64,000 nucleotides of DNA from an uncultured Christensenella sp. Its GTDB lineage: Bacteria > Bacillota > Clostridia > Christensenellales > UBA3700. The DNA lies in the NCBI GenBank assembly GCA_910584975.1, contig CAJUEA010000003.1, positions 34,236 through 98,235 on the forward strand, given 5' to 3'. Numbering within the stretch: position 1 is the stretch's first letter; each line of letters begins with the position of its first letter. Below the pieces are notes generated by a model that was given only the letters and a program-made list of their open reading frames with translations, was not told the DNA's origin and did no database searches. Positions 15,970-27,117 of the stretch are shown here, piece after piece. Position numbers and translations under genes: made by a program.

Positions 15970-15985
15970 TTAAATTAAAAATTAT

Positions 15986-16016
15986 GCCTGTCAGTTTTTT
16001 GACGGGCAATTTTTTA
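15986..16016 (+). terminator. Rho-independent terminator after guaB
   Basis: gcctgtca (15986-15993) pairs with tgacgggc (16000-16007), followed by a T run. Confidence 0.75.
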
Positions 16017-16099
16017 TTGCCCCACGAAATAACCTTTTTGTGGGGACCTCATTTTATATTTTGGTTGGACTTAATATTGCTGTATTAATGACTTTTTTT

Positions 16100-16428
16100 G
16101 TCATTTCGAGCAATTATGCAAGTGTCATTTCGAGCGAAGTCGAGAAATCTCAAACTTTGCTTGGAATGTATAGGTGAGTGTCATATGGAGTTATTATGCA
16201 AGTGTCATCCCGAGCTTGTCGAGGGATCTCAAACTTAGCTTATTATAAAAATGATTCCTTTTATCTTTCTCAACAAGCACAGCCCGAGATTTCTCAACTG
16301 CACTGCGTTCCGTTCGAAATGACAAGTTAAACTTAGAATGACATAGTACCATTTTTATTGTTAGCAATAATATTAATGTCATTCCCCGAGTGAAACGCAG
16401 TGAAATCGAAAGATCTCAAACTTTGCTT
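16100..16428. repeat. Cluster of GTCATTYCGAGC...GAGAAATCTC-type short repeats, including two 80-bp tandem units
   Basis: Unit 1 starts at 16100 and unit 2 at 16180 (GTCAT..GAG.WATTATGCAAGTGTCATYYCGAGC..TCGAGRRATCTCAAACTTWGCTT). There is an inverted long copy at 16285-16323 and a direct long copy at 16378-16428. Confidence 0.85.
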
Positions 16429-16485
16429 TTTATGATAATAATGTTTACCTTATTATAAAGGCTTTAAAAAGTTACCAATTGTGTA

Positions 16486-16524
16486 AAAAGTGTCAAAAAA
16501 AGTATACCTTTTTTGACACTTTTT
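16486..16524. terminator. Near-perfect 16-bp palindromic hairpin with flanking A and T runs
   Basis: aaaagtgtcaaaaaaag pairs with cttttttgacactttt, followed by a T run. It is not adjacent to any CDS end. Confidence 0.5.
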
Positions 16525-16926
16525 TAACTAAAGTTTAAAAACTAAAAGTTATTAAAAATGATAAAATAATAAAGTATTTTACATAAATAGTATAGCATTT
16601 AAACAAAATGCTGTCAAGTGCAATTTGTCAAAAAAGGTATACTTTAATTGGCAGATTTTGCGCAATATGTGTAATAAAAACAGCATATTTTTGAGTTAAT
16701 TTAAGTAGTATTAAATATAAATAAAATATAAAAATTATATTTGACCTTGCTTTTATACATTTTGTATGATATACTTGAATTATAAGCAGTTTTGATTAAT
16801 ATTTGAGTGGCAAATAAAGCGAGCTTTTTTTATTAAAATTTACTTTCTTAAGTTGTATTTTAGCACATAAAAATATTTATAAAAAATAATTTTTCACAAA
16901 AAAATCTATCAAAAATCGGGGGATAT

Positions 16927-18189
16927 ATGAAATTTTGGGATATTTTGAAAATATCATGCAAAAATATGATGAACAACAAGCTTAGGACTTTGCTTGTTTG
17001 GTTTATGTTGTTTATTATGTCCACCATTGTGTTGGTTATTTTGTCAACAGGCGTTGGAATGATAGATTTTTTCAATGATAATTTGAACGAAGGCACCCGT
17101 ACATATCAAGATCTTACATTTGAATACAAAGAAGATAAAAAAGGGGAACAAATTGATATATTCAAATTTGACGAGATTGAGCAATTGGAAAATTTTATTG
17201 CAAAAAAATTGCCTCAACTTAAAGTTATCAAGATGTATTGTGGGGGAGATAATGGAGGAGTGGTTTCTTTTGGTGATCATGCTATTACGATAACTGATAT
17301 GAGATACAATATGTTTTTTGACCAACAGGACTATATGGTTAGTGGCAGAATGTGGGCAGAAAAAGATAGGAATACATCAAGAGTTTGGATAAATCAATCA
17401 TATGCAAATAAATTTAATAAAGCAGTTGGCGATAAAATTGATATAGGGTTGACAATTGGACGAAGTACATTCAAAGTTTATCTTGATATTTTTGGCATTA
17501 TAAAAGATGATGCTATTCCTGGTAAAATACAACAAGAATCAAATGTTTTTTGTGATTATGCTTTTATGCACAATCAAGGTGCTAAGTTTACAAAAATCCA
17601 GTTTATGGAGCCAATGAGTGGAGAAGGTTTGAACTATGATTCTTGGAAAGCTTTGAAAAGTTTTACAAACAAGTATAACAAGTATGACAAGGCAACTAAA
17701 AATGGCATTGCAGTTTATACAAGTTCAAGTGATTTTGATTTAATGTACTACATTATGCTTGCAATTATCTTTTTGATGGTTATTATTTCTCTTGTTGTGC
17801 TTTTGCTAAGCATTGGTTGCGTTGCAAACTCCATTCAAATTACGGTGGAGCAGAATGCACAATTTTTTGGTGTGATGAAAGCAATAGGTATGCGAAATAG
17901 CAATTTGTATTTCATAATTTATACACAAGCAGTAATTATCATTTTAGCAACAATAATCACTGCAAGTGGTGCAGCAGTAGGGTTGTTGTCTGTTTTGACA
18001 CCTGCGATTTTATCCTTTTTGACAACACTGGGTGCACCACCACTGCAACTTTCTTTGACACTTCCTGTTTACATGCCTTTTATTGTATTGTTTGTTTTGA
18101 TTGGACTTGTAATTTTGTGGACGGCAAAATCACTGAAAGGACTTGCTAAAAAAGATGTCATTACAATGATAAATGAGGTGGGGCAATGA
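16927..18189 (+). CDS. FtsX-family (MacB/LolC-like) ABC permease, type A copy 1
   Basis: 420 aa. N-terminal TM, ~230-aa extracytoplasmic domain, C-terminal FtsX domain (VEQNAQFFGVMKAIGMRN) with 3 TM. Confidence 0.85.
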   Translation: MKFWDILKISCKNMMNNKLRTLLVWFMLFIMSTIVLVILSTGVGMIDFFNDNLNEGTRTYQDLTFEYKEDKKGEQIDIFKFDEIEQLENFIAKKLPQLKVIKMYCGGDNGGVVSFGDHAITITDMRYNMFFDQQDYMVSGRMWAEKDRNTSRVWINQSYANKFNKAVGDKIDIGLTIGRSTFKVYLDIFGIIKDDAIPGKIQQESNVFCDYAFMHNQGAKFTKIQFMEPMSGEGLNYDSWKALKSFTNKYNKYDKATKNGIAVYTSSSDFDLMYYIMLAIIFLMVIISLVVLLLSIGCVANSIQITVEQNAQFFGVMKAIGMRNSNLYFIIYTQAVIIILATIITASGAAVGLLSVLTPAILSFLTTLGAPPLQLSLTLPVYMPFIVLFVLIGLVILWTAKSLKGLAKKDVITMINEVGQ

Positions 18190-19907
18190 AGATAAACGAT
18201 TGTTGGAGACTTGCAAAAATAAGTTTGCAAGCACGAAAAAAAGCCACACGAAATACAATTTGCGGAATGGTAGTCAGTTTGGTTATTATTATTCCGTTGA
18301 TATTTGCCACAATTGGCTTGAATTTGTCCGTAAAATCCGAGCTTAATTCTCATCCGGAGCTGCTTTATGCAAGCTTTTATAGTGCACAACCTGGATTTAA
18401 ATTGGATGAGAGCATTGATGAATACAATTTAGATAGGCGTGGTAATAACTATGATCCACCTCACAGAAGCAGATGGAAAGATAGAAGTGCTGATTTTAAA
18501 CAATTGGAAAATGAAACTTTTAATTATGTAAGCGTGGTGGCTGATATTGATAATTGGTATAGCAATTATAATGAAAGTATTCATGTTAATGGTGGTAGAA
18601 GAGGTTTGAAAAAATTTGAAAATATCGTTAACAAAGAATATTCAGCACTTGCAATTGCTGCTGAGAGCTGTGTGAGCAAGTTTTCTTCCTCAAAATATAA
18701 TTTTTTGAAGGCACCATATAACAAAGGTTTTACAGGAAATGGTGCAAGGCAAGTGATATTGAGTGAAAGATATCTTGCAATGGCAGGCTTGCAACCACAA
18801 GATGTTTATGGCAAAAAAGTTACAATAAAAATTAAAGAACATCACTATATTTCCAGTACAAATAATTTTTATTTCAAAACTGACGGCAATGAAAATTTGG
18901 TCGATTCAGTTGAATACAATTTGTTTGAGGAGTTTGAAGTTGTTGGCATTACTACCAATAAGCTATGGTACAATTCAAGCACGGAAAGTGGATTTGATGA
19001 AATTGATGATGATCACTGGAGGAATTATTACACGGGGTTGGAAAATGCCAATATTATAGTGTCAGGTGCATCATATTATGGCAATGACGGAAAACCTGCT
19101 ATTGACCATGAATTTTATGTTGATGAGAATGGCGAAAAGCTGATTTGTGATTTTGGAAATTTGCAGGAGAAAAATGCAATGACAAAAGATTTTGTCTTTT
19201 GTGGGGCAAATGGATACAATCCCTATTATATTGAGGCAGAAAGAGAAAATTGGAAATACACTGGCAAAATGAATTGCGTTCAAGTGAATTATTATAAATA
19301 TTATCCTGAAAATGACAGCACAGATTCTTATGACCAAATAACTGCTATACTAGAAAAAGCTTATCCATTTTATAGTGATGAGTACAAGTCTTTTGACCAA
19401 TTTAGGCTTGGAGGGTATACTGCAAGGATGTATTCTGAATTTGCAGTGATAGACTTTTTTATAAGCAGTATTCTTATGATATTATCAATTTTTTCCATTA
19501 TCATTTTGCTTACAGCATTGATAAATTTGTTTAACACAATTATGCACAGCGTTCAATCACGGAAAAATTATTTGGGTGTTATGCGTGCAGTAGGGGCAAA
19601 ATCCAAAGATATACCTAAGCTGTATTTCTTTGAGGTAATAAGAATGATTTGCACTGCTTTTGCTTGGATTGCGTGCATTGGAATAGCATTGTGTATTGTT
19701 GTAAAAATTGTAATTGACAAGATTTTTACAAGTGCAATTGGTGGTTATGCAAAAATAATTACAATTTCTTTGCCATGGTATTTAATCCCGATAGTAATAC
19801 TAGCGATTATGGCAATTTTGTTTGTTGTCGGATTGATATTTGCTTTGGGTTGCAGTGTAAAAATTGCTTATAAGCCGATTGTGGAATCGCTTGAAGAAGG
19901 GCAATAA
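18186..19907 (+). CDS. FtsX-family ABC permease, type B copy 1
   Basis: 573 aa. ATGA overlap with the upstream gene. ~380-aa extracytoplasmic domain, then an FtsX domain (SRKNYLGVMRAVGAKSKDI). Confidence 0.85.
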   Translation: MKINDCWRLAKISLQARKKATRNTICGMVVSLVIIIPLIFATIGLNLSVKSELNSHPELLYASFYSAQPGFKLDESIDEYNLDRRGNNYDPPHRSRWKDRSADFKQLENETFNYVSVVADIDNWYSNYNESIHVNGGRRGLKKFENIVNKEYSALAIAAESCVSKFSSSKYNFLKAPYNKGFTGNGARQVILSERYLAMAGLQPQDVYGKKVTIKIKEHHYISSTNNFYFKTDGNENLVDSVEYNLFEEFEVVGITTNKLWYNSSTESGFDEIDDDHWRNYYTGLENANIIVSGASYYGNDGKPAIDHEFYVDENGEKLICDFGNLQEKNAMTKDFVFCGANGYNPYYIEAERENWKYTGKMNCVQVNYYKYYPENDSTDSYDQITAILEKAYPFYSDEYKSFDQFRLGGYTARMYSEFAVIDFFISSILMILSIFSIIILLTALINLFNTIMHSVQSRKNYLGVMRAVGAKSKDIPKLYFFEVIRMICTAFAWIACIGIALCIVVKIVIDKIFTSAIGGYAKIITISLPWYLIPIVILAIMAILFVVGLIFALGCSVKIAYKPIVESLEEGQ

Positions 19908-19911
19908 TATG

Positions 19912-19930
19912 TCAAAAATCGGTACTAAAA
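19912..19930 (+). repeat. TCAAAAATCGGTACTAAAA motif copy
   Basis: Exact 19-mer, identical to 40927-40945. Intergenic, between a permease gene and the ATPase gene. Confidence 0.8.
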
Positions 19931-19977
19931 CGCAAAAATATGCGTTTGCAATATAAAAAGTTTTTTTTGGAGGTAGT

Positions 19978-20868
19978 ATGATTAAATTAACAAATGTGAA
20001 CAAAGTGTATGGCAAAGGGGATAGCGCCGTTCATGCATTGAAGGATGTCAATTTGGAGTTGCCAAGTGGCAAGTTTATTTCCATTGTCGGCAAATCTGGA
20101 AGTGGTAAATCCACACTTATGAACATTGTTGGTGCATTGGATTCTTGCACATCTGGTGAGGTTGAAATTGATGGTGAAGTGCTTAACAACAAAACTTCAA
20201 ATCAACTTGCTGACTATCGCAACAAAAAGATTGGCTATATCTTTCAGTCTTTTTATTTGGAACCAACATTTACAGTGCTTGAAAATGTTGCAATGCCAAT
20301 GACCATTGCAGGCGTAAATCGCAAAGAGCGTGAGGCAAAGGCAATGCAGGCTATTTCCGATTTGAATTTGCTTGACAAGGCAAAAAAGAAAGCAAGTGAA
20401 TTGTCAGGTGGACAAAAGCAGCGTGTTTCCATTGCAAGAGCCTTGGTGTTTGACCCAGATATCATTTTGGCAGATGAGCCAACAGGAAATTTGGACAGCC
20501 AAAACGGACAAGAGGTTATTGCACTTTTGCAAAAAATTTGTGATAGTGGTAAAACTGTGCTTTTGGTTACTCACAATATTGATGACGCACGCAAAACTGA
20601 CATTATGGTTGAAATCAAGGATGGTGTGATTGCAAATATTATCGAAAACGATGAGGCAACCAAAAAGGCTGCACAGCACGCAAGTGATTACGATGCTGAT
20701 GGCAACCTTATTGAAAAGAGTGCAACAAGTAAAAATGACTCTTTTGAGCAAGAAGATATCGAGATTAATGTTGAACTTGCAGGAAATAATGACAAACAAG
20801 ATGTTAAAACTGAAAAAAATATTTCCAGCTTAGATGTTGCAGATAAAGCGCAGAAAGTGGAGGAATAA
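19978..20868 (+). CDS. ABC transporter ATP-binding protein (MacB/LolD-like) with an acidic C-terminal extension
   Basis: 296 aa. Walker A GKSGSGKST, signature LSGGQKQRVSIARA, Walker [14 protein letters not shown] ggaggt. Confidence 0.92.
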   Translation: MIKLTNVNKVYGKGDSAVHALKDVNLELPSGKFISIVGKSGSGKSTLMNIVGALDSCTSGEVEIDGEVLNNKTSNQLADYRNKKIGYIFQSFYLEPTFTVLENVAMPMTIAGVNRKEREAKAMQAISDLNLLDKAKKKASELSGGQKQRVSIARALVFDPDIILADEPTGNLDSQNGQEVIALLQKICDSGKTVLLVTHNIDDARKTDIMVEIKDGVIANIIENDEATKKAAQHASDYDADGNLIEKSATSKNDSFEQEDIEINVELAGNNDKQDVKTEKNISSLDVADKAQKVEE

Positions 20869-20869
20869 A

Positions 20870-22177
20870 ATGAAGTTTTGGGATATTTTTAAAATCTCAA
20901 TGCATAATATCTGGGGCAATAAGTTGAGGACATTGCTTGTAACGCTTGTGCTGTTTATTTTGTCAACTATTGTGTTAATAGTTGCATCTGTCGGCGTAAA
21001 TGTGGGTGTGCTATTAAACGAGGCTCAGTCAAGTGAAGACGATAATTATGCAGATATGTCATTGAGATATCAATATGAGCAAATTCAAATTGGCGATCAT
21101 TTTGAAATGAAAGAGTATTATTTTGATAATAATGAATTGGGTAGTTATATTGAAAAAGTTGGCAACGAATTGCCATTTTTGCAAAATGTAACTATGAATG
21201 TAAATACCTCACAAATTCGTTTGGACAACAATACGGAATATGTGGATTTTGCTTTGACTGATTTGAGCAAAAATATGCTTGCAGGACAAGATAACTATTT
21301 GAGAGCAGGCAGATTGTGGAATAAGGATGATGTTAACAAACAATATGCATGGATAAATGATACATATGCAGAAAAGTCAAAGTTGACAGTGGGAGACAAA
21401 TTTAACATAAGAGTTTTTGACAGCGAAGGATATGATAAAGATCCAACTCCAAATTATAACGACTATGAAAAAAGTTATGAGTTTGAAGTTGTTGGAATTG
21501 TTGATTTTCAATACTATGAATGGGCACAAAATTCTTTTGTTATTTTGGATTATAATTTTGCAACAAAAAGTGGGCTTAAAATTAATCGTATTAGATTTAC
21601 TCAATCAAAGATTGAAGAAGGTGCCACTTTGGGACAATTGAACAAAATCAAAAGCTTTATCAAAGACAACAAGACATTTGATTACGAAAAAAATCCAACT
21701 GGACTTGATGTTTATTCAGATATCATTAATGCAAGAACAATGTCAATGATTATGACATTGATTATTGTTGTTGCAGTGCTTGTTGTGTCTGTCATTATCA
21801 TTTTGCTTAGCATTGGTTGTGTGTCAAACTCAATTCAAATTACTGTGGAGCAAAATGCAAAATTCTTTGGTATGATGAAAGCTATTGGTATGAGAAACAA
21901 TGTGGTTAAAAGCGTTGTGAGGATTCAAGCTTTGGTAAGCATTTTTATTGCAGTATTGCTTGGAACTATTGTGACAATCGGGTTGTTTTATGGTATTCAG
22001 CCATTGCTTGCATCAACTCTTGCAACATTAGGCTTGAACTTGAAATTGGTTATGCCTTTTTATGTGCCGTTTGCAGTGTTTGCACTTATGGCGATAATGG
22101 TAATTCTGTTTACAATAAAATCTTTGAACAGAATAAGCAAAATGGATGTTGTTTCTGTAATAAGTGAGGTGAACTGA
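20870..22177 (+). CDS. FtsX-family ABC permease, type A copy 2 (paralog of 16927..18189)
   Basis: ATG at 20870 after SD ggagga. The N-terminus MKFWDIFKIS..NKLRTLLV and the VEQNAKFFGMMKAIGMRN motif are conserved with copy 1, but the extracytoplasmic domain has diverged. Confidence 0.85.
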   Translation: MKFWDIFKISMHNIWGNKLRTLLVTLVLFILSTIVLIVASVGVNVGVLLNEAQSSEDDNYADMSLRYQYEQIQIGDHFEMKEYYFDNNELGSYIEKVGNELPFLQNVTMNVNTSQIRLDNNTEYVDFALTDLSKNMLAGQDNYLRAGRLWNKDDVNKQYAWINDTYAEKSKLTVGDKFNIRVFDSEGYDKDPTPNYNDYEKSYEFEVVGIVDFQYYEWAQNSFVILDYNFATKSGLKINRIRFTQSKIEEGATLGQLNKIKSFIKDNKTFDYEKNPTGLDVYSDIINARTMSMIMTLIIVVAVLVVSVIIILLSIGCVSNSIQITVEQNAKFFGMMKAIGMRNNVVKSVVRIQALVSIFIAVLLGTIVTIGLFYGIQPLLASTLATLGLNLKLVMPFYVPFAVFALMAIMVILFTIKSLNRISKMDVVSVISEVN

Positions 22178-22178
22178 T

Positions 22179-23858
22179 ATGAAAGTGAATGATTACTGGA
22201 GACTTGCCAAAATCAGTTTGAAGGCAAGAAAAAAAGCAACACGAAGCACAGTAAGTGGAATGTCTATCAGTTTGATTATTATTGTTCCAATAATTTTTGC
22301 AATGGTAGCACTTTACGCATCAATTCTTCCTCAATTGAACAAAAATCCTGAAACATTGTATGCTATTTTCCAAAGTGGACAAAAGGGAGTGGTAACAACA
22401 AGTTATAATAATTATACCTATCAATCAATAAATGGTGGAAGGTATGTTAATACAGTAAATGCGAAAGACAATTCTGCTGTTTTTGAAAATGCAAGTTTTG
22501 AAACTTTACATTATGTAAAGGCTTATAAAAGATTTGATGTTTATTCAATGGACGACGAGACTCTGCAAAGTGAATATAAATATTTTGACAGAATTACTGT
22601 GGATGGTGAGACAAAACCACTCAGAGTTAAAAGCACAGATAATCGTTCGGCTAGTGCAAATACATCGCTTGCAGTGGTGGATTCAAATCAGCTTGATTTG
22701 CTTGCAGCATCAAAATTTGGTGTTTTGGGCGATTCTCACAACAAAGGCTTTAGTGGCAATGGTGCAAGACAAGTTATTTTGAGTCGCAAATACTTAAAAA
22801 TGGCAGGACTTACAGCTGATGATGTTTATGGCAAAAAAGTAAGTGTGGAAATTCGTGAAAAATCAAATGGTACGATAGATTATTGTTCAGGTGAAGATAA
22901 ATTTTCTTATATTGACCACTATTTGTTCAGAGATTTTGAAGTTGTCGGAGTAATTGGCAGTGAAAACGCTCCACTTTATGATTATGAGGGGACAAAAGAC
23001 ATCAACACTGCAGATATGATTGTATCTTCAGCATCTTTGTATAGCCAAGATAATACACCTGCAATAATGTATAACATTAATGCAGATAACAATAATGGTA
23101 ATTATACAAGATATAAAATTGATTTTGGCAATATTGAGGCAAAAAATTTCAAGGCATATCAATACTTGTTTACAGGATTTGAAGATTATGGTATTTATAC
23201 AAATTTGGCTAAATATAACGATAAAACAGGAGAAATTTTGCAAGTTGAAAGCAATTATTACAAATATATTCCTGATAAAAACAAATTAAATGCTTATGGG
23301 CAGGTTTCAAATGTTGTATCTTCTGTTTATCCACATTACAAGGCAGATTACACTTTAAAAATGGAGTTTGAAAATGTGGTTGGTTCGCCTTCATATGCAA
23401 CATTTTCTATGATAAACTTTATCATTACAATTGCAATGTCTTTTGCAGCAGTGTTTGCTGGCATAATATTGTTTGCAGCATTGGTCAACTTGTTTAATAC
23501 AATCATGCACAGTGTTAATTCTCGAAAAAATTATCTTGGAGTTATGCGTGCAATAGGTGCAAGGTCAAGTGTTATCCCTAAATTGTATGTGTCTGAAGTA
23601 ATGCGTGTTTTTGCAAGAGCATTTGTTTGGATTGCATTGATTGGTGGTGCAATTTGCGTGGGTATTAAGTTGTTGTTTGACTATTTGTTCAAAGGTGGAC
23701 TTGCTTATGGCAATGTGGTTATTTCTATAAGTTGGGCAACAATACCAATTGCACTTGTGGTTGTTATCGCAGTGCTTGCTGTGATTGGATTAGCTTTTGC
23801 CTTAGGGTGCAGTTTGAAAATGTCTCGCAAACCTATTATGGAAACTTTGGAGGGTTAA
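22179..23858 (+). CDS. FtsX-family ABC permease, type B copy 2 (paralog of 18186..19907)
   Basis: 559 aa. MKVNDYWRLAKISLKARKKATR, NKGFSGNGARQVILS and SRKNYLGVMRAIGARSS all match copy 1. Confidence 0.85.
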   Translation: MKVNDYWRLAKISLKARKKATRSTVSGMSISLIIIVPIIFAMVALYASILPQLNKNPETLYAIFQSGQKGVVTTSYNNYTYQSINGGRYVNTVNAKDNSAVFENASFETLHYVKAYKRFDVYSMDDETLQSEYKYFDRITVDGETKPLRVKSTDNRSASANTSLAVVDSNQLDLLAASKFGVLGDSHNKGFSGNGARQVILSRKYLKMAGLTADDVYGKKVSVEIREKSNGTIDYCSGEDKFSYIDHYLFRDFEVVGVIGSENAPLYDYEGTKDINTADMIVSSASLYSQDNTPAIMYNINADNNNGNYTRYKIDFGNIEAKNFKAYQYLFTGFEDYGIYTNLAKYNDKTGEILQVESNYYKYIPDKNKLNAYGQVSNVVSSVYPHYKADYTLKMEFENVVGSPSYATFSMINFIITIAMSFAAVFAGIILFAALVNLFNTIMHSVNSRKNYLGVMRAIGARSSVIPKLYVSEVMRVFARAFVWIALIGGAICVGIKLLFDYLFKGGLAYGNVVISISWATIPIALVVVIAVLAVIGLAFALGCSLKMSRKPIMETLEG

Positions 23859-23861
23859 GCT

Positions 23862-25214
23862 ATGCGTAAGAAATTTTTAATATTTTTATCAATTTGTATT
23901 ATAGCTTGTCTTAGTTTGTGTTTGGCATCATGTGCGGACAATACAGACTATTCAGGCGAGGTGCGTGTAACAATCAATTTGGATAAGGAATATCCTGAAG
24001 TTTCTGTTAATTGTCCTCAAGGAGAAATCGAAAAGAAGGACAATAAACAATATGTTGTGTCATTAAGCAATACTTTGCCAGTGGATATTGTTGTCGCTTG
24101 TCCCGGTTATGAAACAGTTATTTTTTCATACACAACCAAGCAATTAAAACAAAATTCTGACATAACAGAAAGTGTAACTTTTAAAAATGAGTTTTACAGA
24201 TTTAGCTTTAAAGTTCAAAACAACGAAAAAATTGAGTTTGCAGAAGATTATGAAGGAATAAATTTGTCAATTCAATCAGGCAGTTATGTACTAGAGAGCG
24301 AAAAGCCTATTACTCAAGATATAAAATTTAATGTTAAAAATGAAGAGTTCAAGCCATTTGTCATTTTTGAGGAATCTATAATTTATAATGGTGCGAAAGG
24401 TTCGCTTGTTGAATCTATTCCTTTGCTTGATAAAAGAGAAAGTAATTCGGCAGTAATATATGTTCCAACAAGCTTTGGTCACAATAAGCAAGAATTGGCT
24501 ATGGTAGATGCTAAAGATTTTGATATGGATTATGAAAAAGTAACAATACTTAAAGCAGGCGAGTATAAAAAAGTCGAAATAAAAAATTATGTGTTATTTG
24601 ACAGGTATAATTATTATTATGGAAGTAAGACTTTAGTAATGGAAGATACTCTTAAAAACAATGGCTATTGCAATCTTGCAACCTGTGATACTATCGAAAG
24701 TGATGCAAATCAAAAAACAAGTGTAGAGGTTGAATTGAAAGATAAACTTACTGGTGCGACACTACAAAATATTTCGCAAGATATTTGTCAAGGTGAAATT
24801 TTGTATCTTAGAAATTTTTATTATAACAATGATTATTCCATTGTAGGTTCAGAACAAGTTGTCTATTACAAAGAAATATTCGGCAATAAAATTGTTGTTG
24901 AGTTTATGAGACAATATGTGGTAACTTTGCACATAACAAATTATCAAGATATACAATATGAGGAAGAATATCAAAACTTTAGCTGTGGCAGTGGCTCAAA
25001 TTCTTTAGGTTTTAATGTGAAACAAATGATTGAGAATAATGGAAGAGTGGAGATAATAATCAAAGGAAATATGGCAGGTAAAAAATTGCAGTTTGTTATG
25101 ACATCGTTTATGAATAATGAGCCAAAATATGTGTTCATATTGAGTATTCCAGAAAATATGGAAAATATGAATACCTTTGAAATCATTGTTGAAGCTGCCG
25201 ATGCAGGCTGGTAA
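23862..25214 (+). CDS. Lipoprotein of unknown function
   Basis: 450 aa. Signal peptide with lipobox LASC (MRKKFLIFLSICIIACLSLCLASCADN). Starts 3 nt after the preceding permease stop. No domain recognised. Confidence 0.7.
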   Translation: MRKKFLIFLSICIIACLSLCLASCADNTDYSGEVRVTINLDKEYPEVSVNCPQGEIEKKDNKQYVVSLSNTLPVDIVVACPGYETVIFSYTTKQLKQNSDITESVTFKNEFYRFSFKVQNNEKIEFAEDYEGINLSIQSGSYVLESEKPITQDIKFNVKNEEFKPFVIFEESIIYNGAKGSLVESIPLLDKRESNSAVIYVPTSFGHNKQELAMVDAKDFDMDYEKVTILKAGEYKKVEIKNYVLFDRYNYYYGSKTLVMEDTLKNNGYCNLATCDTIESDANQKTSVEVELKDKLTGATLQNISQDICQGEILYLRNFYYNNDYSIVGSEQVVYYKEIFGNKIVVEFMRQYVVTLHITNYQDIQYEEEYQNFSCGSGSNSLGFNVKQMIENNGRVEIIIKGNMAGKKLQFVMTSFMNNEPKYVFILSIPENMENMNTFEIIVEAADAGW

Positions 25215-25299
25215 AATGCTTTCATTGCAAATTAATATTTTGGTCATTAAAAGCTTATTGTTTTAAAAAGATTGCATAAAAGAAAAACTAATTAAACGA

Positions 25300-25336
25300 A
25301 AAACTCGTCTTCTTGAAATTTGAAGATGAGTTTTTT
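25300..25336 (+). terminator. Rho-independent terminator of the ABC/lipoprotein operon
   Basis: aaaactcgtcttc pairs with gaagatgagtttt, followed by a T run. Confidence 0.8.
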
Positions 25337-25386
25337 ATTTTAGCAAATAATTTATTCAGATTTTTGTTTTTAATCTTTTGATAAAG

Positions 25387-25414
25387 AAAAGGCGAACTTT
25401 TTTGTTCGCCTTTT
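25387..25414. terminator. Bidirectional terminator, probably serving the convergent acyl-CoA synthetase gene
   Basis: aaaaggcgaac pairs with gttcgcctttt across a T6 loop. Confidence 0.65.
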
Positions 25415-25464
25415 AACATTTGTGCATGACATTAATTTTTAGAGATTAATTTTGTAAGTATTGC

Positions 25465-27117
25465 TTACTTTTTATTGTCACGAGCGGCAATCTCTTTTCT
25501 GATGATTTTTCCACTGATTGTTTTTGGTAATGCATCCACATATTCCACAATTCGTGGATATTTGTAAGGAGCTGTTGCTTTTTTAACATGATTTTGCAAT
25601 TCTTTTGTAAGCTCGTCGCTTGGGCTAAAGCCTTTTGCAAGTACAATTGTTGCTTTTACAACTTGTCCTCTTAGTGGGTCAGGTGCACCTGTAATTGCAC
25701 ATTCCAAAACAGCAGGATGTTCGTGAAGAGCTGATTCAACTTCAAATGGTCCAATTCTGTAACCACTTGATTTGATAATGTCGTCTTTTCTGCCAACGAA
25801 CCAGTAGTATCCGTCGCTGTCCTTTGTTGCAAGGTCGCCTGTGTGATAAACTCCTGTGCCAAAAGTATTAAATGTTCTTTCGTCATCTTTGTGATATTTG
25901 TACAAAAGCCCAAGTTGATTTTCACGCATTTTAATGCAAATTTCGCCTGTTGCGCCATCCTCAACTTCGTTTTCAGAATTGTCTGCAAGATAAATATCAT
26001 AGATTGGAGAAGGTTTTCCCATACTGCCTTGCTTGATTGGAAGATATTTGAATGTTCCAAGCAAAACTGAAGATTCAGTTTGACCAAAGCCTTCGTAAAT
26101 TTCAAGTCCTGTTGCTTTTGTAAATTCTTTTGAAACTTCAGGATTTAAAGGTTCGCCCGCAGTAGAGCAGTGTTTTAAGCTTGAAAAATCATATTTTGAC
26201 AAGTCTTCCTTAATCAAAAATCTGTAAATTGTTGGAGGTGCACAAAAAGTTGTAACTTTGTATTTTGAAATCATTGGCAGTATGTCTGTTGGAGTAAATC
26301 TGCCAAAGTAGTCATAAACAAAAATTGCTGTGCCAGAAATCCATTGACCATAAATTCTTCCCCAACTGCATTTTGCCCAGCCACTTTCTGCCATTGTAAG
26401 GTGCAAACCATCATCAACAACATCTTGCCAAAATTTTGCAGTGATAATGTGTCCCAATGGGTACAAATATTTGTGAGCAACCATTTTTGGTTCGCCTGTT
26501 GTTCCACTTGTAAAGTAAACAAGAAACATATCGTCGTTTTCAGTTTTCCAAGGTGGAGTGAAATCAGCTGAAGTGTTTTCAAGTGTAGTGGTAAAGTTGA
26601 GCATACCATCAGCCTCGCCATGAGTGTAAACAGCTTTAAGTTGTTTGCAGTTTGGTATTGCCTCTAAAACATGCTTTGTAACTTCTTTTTGATTTGTAAC
26701 AAACAAAAGCTTAACTTCTGCATTGTTGCATCTGTATTCAATATCTTTTGCTGTAAGTAAAAAAGTTGCAGGTACAAGTACAATGCCAAGTTTATGACAA
26801 GCTGTTGCAATAATCCAGTATTCGTACCTTCTTCCAAGCATTGTCATAATAAAATCGCCTTTTTTAAGGTTGTGAGAAAGCAAAATATTGCAAACTTTAT
26901 CACTTAATGTTTTTAGTTCTCCAAAAGTAATAATTTTTTCCTCTCCCTCGTCATTAACCCAAACAAGAGCAATTTTTTGTGGAGTGATTCGTGCATATTC
27001 ATCGACGACATCGTAACCGAAGTTAAAGTTTTCTGGGATGTTGATTTTAGTATTTTTGCTAAAATCGTCGTAATCCAATGCATTGATGTTGCTACAATAT
27101 CTGTCTAATAAATTCAT
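25465..27117 (-). CDS. AMP-forming acyl-CoA synthetase (medium-chain/ACSM-like adenylate-forming enzyme)
   Basis: 550 aa. AMP-binding motifs YFTSGTTGEPKMV, YGQTE and GDLATKDSDGYYWFVGRKDDIIKSSGYRIGPFEVE. Confidence 0.85.
   Translation of the reverse strand: MNLLDRYCSNINALDYDDFSKNTKINIPENFNFGYDVVDEYARITPQKIALVWVNDEGEEKIITFGELKTLSDKVCNILLSHNLKKGDFIMTMLGRRYEYWIIATACHKLGIVLVPATFLLTAKDIEYRCNNAEVKLLFVTNQKEVTKHVLEAIPNCKQLKAVYTHGEADGMLNFTTTLENTSADFTPPWKTENDDMFLVYFTSGTTGEPKMVAHKYLYPLGHIITAKFWQDVVDDGLHLTMAESGWAKCSWGRIYGQWISGTAIFVYDYFGRFTPTDILPMISKYKVTTFCAPPTIYRFLIKEDLSKYDFSSLKHCSTAGEPLNPEVSKEFTKATGLEIYEGFGQTESSVLLGTFKYLPIKQGSMGKPSPIYDIYLADNSENEVEDGATGEICIKMRENQLGLLYKYHKDDERTFNTFGTGVYHTGDLATKDSDGYYWFVGRKDDIIKSSGYRIGPFEVESALHEHPAVLECAITGAPDPLRGQVVKATIVLAKGFSPSDELTKELQNHVKKATAPYKYPRIVEYVDALPKTISGKIIRKEIAARDNKK

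Follow-up and report, generated by a model that had tools for sequence, protein, structure and literature searches.

The 64,000-nucleotide stretch of DNA from an uncultured Christensenella sp. that was analysed here (the window) carries, at positions 16927-25214, six co-oriented and closely packed genes encoding four permeases of two unlike types (A and B), one ATPase (D) and a lipoprotein (Lpp). With a probability of roughly 60%, we regard their products as an accessory four-part envelope machine (D, A plus B, and Lpp) of a single-membraned gut bacterium, in which one motor would drive two alternative permease pairs. The plan is that of the type VII ATP-binding cassette (ABC) systems with permeases of the MacB/FtsX fold, as judged from profile matches and a structure model. 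What we read as new here is a MacB-fold machine of the heterodimer type with a dedicated orphan lipoprotein and a removable second pair sharing one ATPase; the plan itself is known for type VII systems.

Gene organization and protein families

The open reading frame (ORF) listing of the window gives the following genes.

16927-18189, + strand: A1, type-A FtsX/MacB-fold permease of the inserted pair; 420 aa, four transmembrane (TM) segments, outside domain of about 225 aa
18186-19907, + strand: B1, type-B FtsX/MacB-fold permease of the inserted pair; 573 aa, four TM segments, outside domain of about 370 aa
19978-20868, + strand: D, the sole ATPase gene of the array; 296 aa, a MacB/LolD/FtsE-type nucleotide-binding domain (NBD) of about 222 aa and an acidic low-complexity tail of about 75 aa
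20870-22177, + strand: A2, type-A permease of the ancestral pair; 435 aa when read from the conserved start MKFWDI
22179-23858, + strand: B2, type-B permease of the ancestral pair; 559 aa
23862-25214, + strand: Lpp, lipid-anchored all-beta protein, the fourth cassette component; 450 aa

The start of A2 was set at 20870; the mechanical ORF call begins at 20834. A1 and B1 overlap by 4 nt, 1 nt separates D from A2 and A2 from B2, 3 nt lie between B2 and Lpp, and 70 nt between B1 and D. These coordinates agree with a first-pass annotation of the DNA, which had described the order A1-B1-D-A2-B2-lipoprotein with overlapping or few-nucleotide junctions and one 70-nt gap before the ATPase gene. An assembly artefact can be ruled out because the array is spanned by single contigs of independent mouse-gut runs (X1, 16205-25700; X11, 16923-25700; X2, 16806-24610). 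The runs that hold this stretch are mostly from mouse gut.

All four permeases exceed the curated cut-off of Pfam FtsX (PF02687, 25.5 bits), with 41.3 bits for A1, 40.6 for B1, 44.8 for A2 and 29.2 for B2. MacB_PCD, the second family put forward in the first-pass annotation, was matched by A1 only, at 24.8 bits, slightly under its cut-off. A scan for TM segments predicts four per permease, with a TM1-TM2 loop of 225-370 aa. Identity is 37% between A1 and A2 (E 3e-62) and 39% between B1 and B2 (E 6e-113), and A1 and B1 share 21%, confined to the FtsX part. Profile searches and sequence comparison thus bear out that there are two distinct types of permease, each present twice through duplication of an A-B pair, beside a single ATPase gene.

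Within the paralogues, identity is 64% over the N-terminus and TM1, 42-52% over TM2-4 and 22-32% over the TM1-TM2 loops. The outside domains have therefore diverged, as had been proposed. The high conservation claimed for the cytoplasmic and TM parts therefore holds only for the N-terminal and coupling-helix stretches. Two 33-mers quoted as an example of this conservation were located at 17811 and 21811, within a 121-nt stretch of 81% identity that covers the end of TM2 and the coupling helix and is the best-kept DNA between the paralogues.

The structure model covers B2 alone of the four permeases. This AlphaFold2 model (pLDDT 84.6, pTM 0.81, from a 45-sequence alignment) has the MacB fold: TM1 and TM2 are both long and flank a beta-rich outside domain of about 350 residues, and a short coupling helix lies between TM2 and the last two helices, TM3 and TM4. 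Its best matches in the PDB are YtrF (9o9x), Spr0695 of S. pneumoniae, MacB and LolE/LolC (E 3e-11 to 1e-8), and HrtB and BceB are also found. The A-type profile aligns with YtrF 9o9x over the full length (residues 1-406, E 1.8e-19), and with LolE in the PDB it gives a weak local match (E 5e-4). The B family comprises only 49 clusters among 5.8 billion proteins. In all loci compared, A and B are adjacent, either overlapping or 1-2 nt apart.

D matches ABC_tran (E 2.4e-35) and is a complete ABC ATPase, its translation showing the Walker A, signature, Walker B-Glu and H-loop motifs. Its top NCBIfam models are LolD, MacB-NBD, DarD and FtsE, all under their cut-offs. For instance, D scores 235.2 bits with the LolD model TIGR02211 (cut-off 307.75) and 204.1 with NF008639 (cut-off 360). 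The C-terminal tail of about 75 aa (window positions 20644-20868) is acidic, of low complexity and fast-evolving. The length of D varies between 270 and 295 aa across species, being longer in G006, and the tail is absent from the 225-aa ATPases of distant cassettes.

The single-pair cassette and its distribution

The cassette D-A-B-Lpp with a single pair was found in 14 other loci of metagenome-assembled genomes of Christensenellales/Clostridia. Four of them belong to the genus of the window (G001, G004, G005 and G006) and one to another family (G058); the others are L038, L040, L042, L086, L087, L088, L090, and L094 and L096, these last two reached only via remote Lpp relatives. From this distribution, the single-pair D-A-B-Lpp is taken to be the ancestral and widespread unit. 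Neighbourhood conservation thus upholds the first-pass gene order in one respect, since the lipoprotein gene is linked in all loci of ancestral type (14 single and 3 double), but not in the other, since homologous loci generally have one pair.

The neighbouring genes are different at every cassette locus; the cassette is therefore self-contained, and gene context gives no functional clue. Within the order the module is patchy: some 11 of the 61 related genomes have it, and it is missing from G007, a member of the genus of the window. Restriction-modification or other defence-type genes stand directly after the cassette only in L087 (10746-15641; type III methylase, helicase and NERD) and L090 (12523-14490; D12 methyltransferase and NOV_C), and not in the window or the other loci.

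Origin of the additional A1-B1 pair

The double form A1-B1-D-A2-B2-Lpp is present in three genomes (the window, G008 and L089), between the genes for IMPDH and acyl-CoA synthetase. It is intact on the metagenome contig L089, with 81-90% protein identity to the window, and is split over two contigs in G008. At the same chromosomal site G001, G005 and G006 hold D-A2-B2-Lpp, and G002 holds D followed by an A1-type and a B1-type gene and then by a different large secreted protein. A2 has orthologues in G001, G005, G006 and G008, which are 53-57% identical to it.

The A and B trees are parallel. The type-1 copies of the window, G002 and G008 group together with 100% support, and this clade arises within the genus, after the branching of G004. 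The pair was therefore duplicated as one unit. This phylogeny, which had been proposed as a means of dating the duplication, places the split within the genus, where A1-B1 probably arose.

The features that border the insert are given below.

15970-16926, + strand: gene-free leader/promoter region of the operon, 957 nt, with multi-copy repeats, a palindrome and a promoter-like site
16900-16919, + strand: left copy of a 20-nt imperfect direct repeat containing TCAAAAATCGG, 85% identical to 19903-19922
19903-19922, + strand: right copy of the 20-nt direct repeat, pairing with 16900-16919
19908-19977, + strand: 70-nt spacer between B1 and D; proximal part of the D leader, kept from the ancestral operon in which D came first; contains the Shine-Dalgarno sequence GGAGG and a small hairpin

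A1-B1 is thus bracketed by the two copies of the repeat, at a spacing of 3003 bp. The comparison of G006 with G008 is instructive, since their A2-B2 genes and leaders are almost identical and the A1-B1 pair of G008 lies inside that leader. It is bracketed by a repeat of about 25 nt, and the last 65 nt or so before D are kept, nearly identical to G006, which has no A1-B1. The 70-nt spacer of the window resembles the leader of G005. From the leader comparison and the repeats it follows that the 70-nt gap represents the proximal part of the D leader, which was retained. The symmetric duplication around one ATPase that the first-pass annotation had described is therefore to be replaced by a one-pair ancestral unit D-A-B-Lpp into which A1-B1 was inserted, at the level of the genus, between D and its leader. 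These sequence comparisons suggest that A1-B1 can be gained or lost by recombination between the repeats without harm to the rest of the operon.

A tandem duplication of D-A-B followed by the loss of the first D would be expected to leave a remnant of this gene; by tblastn none is present in the 957-nt gap between IMPDH and A1. The IMPDH-acyl-CoA synthetase interval is a variable island in the genus. In G007 it contains only a 1132-aa secreted protein of no clear Pfam family (L092 8452-11850), and in G002 (L027 11887-13269) D-A1-B1 is followed by the start of the same secreted protein.

Probable sharing of one ATPase by two pairs

D is the only ATPase gene of the window operon. Orthologous D proteins (85-94% identical) accompany the type-2 pair alone in G001, G005 and G006, and the type-1 pair alone in G002; D can therefore serve either pair, which backs the earlier proposal of a single ATPase working with both. 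Most likely, to judge from these gene combinations, D is shared, giving A1B1D2 and A2B2D2 complexes that would differ mainly in their outside domains.

Both pairs are maintained. The window and L089 are close enough for measuring selection, and their comparison gives omega values of 0.23 for A1, 0.20 for B1, 0.14 for A2, 0.17 for B2 and 0.19 for Lpp. All genes are under purifying selection. The outside domains (0.21-0.35) and TM2-4 (0.04-0.10) differ several-fold, the latter being slower, and in D the values are 0.02 for the NBD and 0.26 for the tail. Across species, identity is about 96% for IMPDH, 93% for acyl-CoA synthetase, 85-94% for D, 50-57% for A and B and about 33-50%, over aligned parts, for Lpp. 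Contigs from metatranscriptome runs, which may include DNA carry-over, cover the six genes and bridge A1-B1, B1-D and A2-B2-Lpp.

The lipoprotein Lpp

Lpp begins with a signal peptide that ends in the lipobox LASC, and a lipobox is present in 57 of the 60 long members of its family; the host genome encodes Lgt. Profile searches found no Pfam or NCBIfam family for Lpp, in agreement with its earlier description as a terminal 450-aa lipoprotein of no recognisable domain. The family comprises 63 clusters among 1.84 billion representatives, and in the loci examined it is placed only directly after D-A-B. A family so small, lipobox-bearing and always located after D-A-B is therefore an integral, dedicated fourth component and no passenger gene.

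The Lpp model (pLDDT 62) is all-beta and resembles, at low confidence, tandem Ig-like domains. Together with the lipid anchor, this rod-like beta build suggests an outside partner or scaffold reaching into the wall. A binding-protein-dependent importer with Lpp as its binding protein is ruled out, as the fold of the permeases is that of MacB, and Lpp, an all-beta Ig-like protein, does not have a Venus-flytrap fold.

Lpp varies in length. The window protein, like that of L089 (also 450 aa), has no counterpart of some 150-200 central residues that are kept by relatives of 583-743 aa. G008, which has the double form, keeps a long Lpp, so that the central deletion is not tied to the extra permease pair. 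In the representative library, P0102 (3250 aa) contains 13 repeats like the first Lpp domain (profile positions 18-84), and these score as Ig-like (Ig_VWA7) and Calx-beta in Pfam. The first Lpp domain therefore belongs to a wider Ig-like repeat type.

Proposed working and alternative explanations

In type VII ABC systems, cytoplasmic ATP turnover moves outside domains, and the work is done on the outer face of the membrane (PMC5985334). On this model, a D dimer would lie under one A and one B, two unlike four-helix permeases. Judging from the fold family, ATP binding and hydrolysis would shift the long stalk helices TM1 and TM2, and the movement of the stalk would drive both outside domains, with no solute carried through the membrane. 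Lpp, as a lipid-anchored string of Ig-like domains, would act with the outside domains or be acted on by them, and the single D would power A1B1D2 or A2B2D2.

We infer A-B heterodimer formation, the sharing of D and a physical contact with Lpp. The A-B order is fixed, translation is coupled, the two genes were duplicated together and there is a single ATPase gene; these four observations speak for joint action of A and B, the simplest form of which would be a heterodimer seated on a D dimer, on the pattern of LolCDE. Neither LolA (PF03548) nor Omp85 (PF01103) was detected in the host genome (1.7 Mb, 96% complete), and both were found in control genomes; the cell is therefore single-membraned, in line with the assumption of the first-pass annotation.

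Several points weigh against this reading. A and B could each homodimerise, as the nearest solved relative YtrF does. YtrF is nearest both by sequence and by fold. The cross pairs A1B2 and A2B1 may also form. In G002, D-A1-B1 is present and Lpp is nowhere in the genome; the type-1 pair therefore does not need Lpp, whose tie to the machine is by gene linkage only. The low-confidence Lpp model gives generic Ig-like matches only, and the contigs from RNA runs possibly include DNA carry-over. As to a function in peptide defence, Pfam/NCBIfam, PADLOC and small-ORF checks found no regulator, peptide gene or resistance marker nearby.

The task of the machine can be addressed only tentatively. YknXYZ, BceAB and HrtAB remove toxic peptides or lipophilic molecules. 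By analogy, our best guess, although it is more likely wrong than right, is that the operon serves in defence against peptides or envelope stress, by removing or neutralising variable ligands outside the cell or at the membrane face, such as antimicrobial peptides, with the second pair widening the range. This guess is made because the outside parts are fast-evolving, the module is patchily distributed and accessory, and toxic compounds are removed by other type VII systems of Gram-positives. A further proposal, which we consider possible and put forward with reserve, is that D-A-B-Lpp represents an undescribed Gram-positive class of type VII systems in which an obligate heterodimer mechanically works a dedicated, lipid-anchored and wall-spanning Ig-like rod and the repeat-bounded pairs are exchangeable cartridges on a common ATPase. 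If this were true, the cell could change or widen its outside recognition with the motor untouched.

It is unlikely that the machine is instead a control of wall remodelling similar to FtsEX or YtrEF, in which the outside domains would switch a wall-acting partner and Lpp would be this partner or a scaffold. FtsEX provides a precedent for type VII machines that regulate outside proteins. The A type is nearest to YtrF along its full length, and in B. subtilis a link of YtrE2F2 with autolysis and wall thickness has been described (PMC13729185, PMC8060467). However, no hydrolase, LytM, CHAP, amidase or coiled-coil part can be recognised in Lpp, the module is patchy in its order (with G007, of the genus of the window, being without it), and its fast evolution is unlike that of core wall machinery.

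Lipoprotein extraction in the manner of Lol, with A-B-D pulling its own or other lipoproteins from the outer leaflet into the wall or the medium and the second pair handling another lipoprotein set, is quite improbable. The gene content (two unlike 4-TM permeases and one ATPase) is that of LolCDE, LolE/LolC are among the best fold matches of B2, LolD is the top NCBIfam model for D, and a lipoprotein gene is attached at all cassette loci cited. Against this, D remains at 235 bits, below the LolD cut-off of 307.75, A1, B1, A2 and B2 match no LolC/LolE NCBIfam model at E <= 0.01, and the closest relative is YtrF, not LolE. Moreover, a genome with neither LolA nor Omp85 offers no acceptor or destination, and G002 keeps D-A1-B1 without Lpp. 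The LolCDE logic invoked in the first-pass annotation thus survives as gene content and not in the family assignments or the partner proteins; the sub-threshold LolD score, the lack of a LolC/E model match and the absence of LolA and Omp85 rule out a Lol pathway proper.

There is likewise little probability that the two pairs are not in use together, with only one working with D at a time and A1-B1 being a redundant or decaying copy or a captured alternative allele of the locus. Close relatives do manage with one pair of either type, and the nearly identical A2-B2 of G006 and G008, which differ only by A1-B1, indicate that the pair is easily gained or lost, but both pairs are intact in the three double-form genomes, A1 and B1 have omega values of 0.20-0.23 (0.07-0.10 in TM2-4), both pairs lie on transcript contigs that continue into D (these may include DNA carry-over), and the type-1 copies differ between species as much as the type-2 orthologues, indicating that they have been kept for long.

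An anti-phage defence system was also considered and set aside; PADLOC gave no match for the permeases or Lpp, and its matches for D were generic ATPase ones.

The reading preferred here, one motor driving two alternative pairs, has a wider meaning. To our knowledge, what is understood of heterodimeric type VII ABC machines comes almost entirely from LolCDE, a system serving an outer membrane, and the envelope biology of Christensenellales is all but unexplored. The operon provides a compact system of the heterodimer type, with an orphan lipoprotein of its own, in a gut bacterium that has a single membrane. It also offers a natural comparison, as pair 1 alone, pair 2 with Lpp, both or neither are found in related genomes at the same site with the same ATPase. 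Whether one NBD dimer serves alternative heterodimers, and what a lipid-anchored Ig-like rod adds to a mechanotransmitting ABC system, are testable questions. The rapid evolution of the outside parts suggests a role at the gut interface with peptides, phages or the host.

Leader region and repeated elements

The leader contains multi-copy repeats at 16099-16442, made up of GTCATTTCGAGC... units, a palindrome at 16491-16524, TGTCAAAAAAAGTATACCTTTTTTGACA, and a promoter-like site at 16741-16770. Parts of it, including the palindrome, are conserved in G001, G002 and G005, where they precede the first gene of the cassette. The palindrome is found in the leaders of related species and in about 11 copies in the host genome. 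Metagenome contigs of several runs break at the leader repeats or the palindrome, and the strain of run X11 has 110 other bases in place of 16029-16445. The leader has no Rfam match and no convincing small ORF, and an upstream riboswitch, leader RNA or small peptide gene was rejected on these grounds.

The TCAAAAATCGG motif of the direct repeat is present in 8 copies in the window and in 146 in the genome. For the 10-mer TCAAAAATCG the counts are 8 in the window, where 0.26 would be expected, and 146 in the genome of 1.7 Mb; most copies lie upstream of genes and on the coding strand. Two of these copies make up the direct repeat around A1-B1, and a leader element or a recombination site are candidate roles. 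A search of the window gave the following sites.

16909, 19912, 29587 (- strand), 35174, 40927, 45010, 59596 and 62819: TCAAAAATCG

Comparison with known systems

Several known machines share parts of this plan. LolCDE resembles the operon most in its logic, with two unlike four-helix MacB-fold permeases beside one ATPase and the involvement of a lipoprotein; the resemblance extends to the strong fold matches of B2 with LolE/LolC and to LolD as the best-scoring NCBIfam model for D. However, the bacterium studied here has no outer membrane and no LolA, and the outside domain of B is much larger (about 360 aa). In addition, a single dedicated orphan lipoprotein family takes the place of the whole lipoprotein set of the cell, and LolCDE has no second pair.

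The nearest solved relative is YtrE2F2 of Bacillus subtilis (PDB 9o9x/9o9y), as indicated by the A profile (E 1.8e-19) and the B2 fold (E 2.9e-11). It is likewise a Gram-positive system with a separate ATPase and no membrane fusion protein (MFP). YtrF is a single permease that forms a homodimer, and the ytrGABCDEF operon is under the repressor YtrA and includes a second ABC system (PMC13729185). In contrast, the window operon combines two unlike permeases with a dedicated lipoprotein and lacks a GntR regulator.

YknXYZ and Spr0693-0695 of S. pneumoniae (PDB 5xu1) also have the MacB fold and a likely role at the outer face, and they likewise depend on an additional outside component encoded in the operon. 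These systems consist of a permease homodimer and an HlyD-type MFP, whereas the outside component here is a lipid-anchored Ig-like beta protein. No HlyD-family MFP is encoded in the window operon or in the Pfam-annotated loci L086-L090, L094 and L096. More generally, Pfam/NCBIfam profile searches and a check of small ORFs confirmed that MFP, two-component system and precursor genes are absent from the operon, as had been noted in the first place.

BceAB differs in having a single 10-TM permease and a BceRS-like two-component system, while the permeases of the window have 4 TM segments each, and no kinase or response regulator gene was found in or beside the operon (ORF list and Pfam/NCBIfam searches). 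With respect to FtsEX, the scores are low (FtsE TIGR02673, 207 with a cut-off of 264.85; FtsX_actino, about 20 with a cut-off of 250). FtsX has a small outside domain, in contrast to the 225-370 aa found here, and Lpp has no hydrolase or coiled-coil signature.

The sharing of a motor is known from other ABC systems. MsmK and MsiK serve several sugar permease pairs, and the modules of group II energy-coupling factor (ECF) systems are alike in this respect. In all of them one ATPase works with several membrane modules, but they are importers of other folds, and their ATPase is encoded apart, whereas in the window operon the sharing would take place inside one operon of type VII mechanotransmitters.

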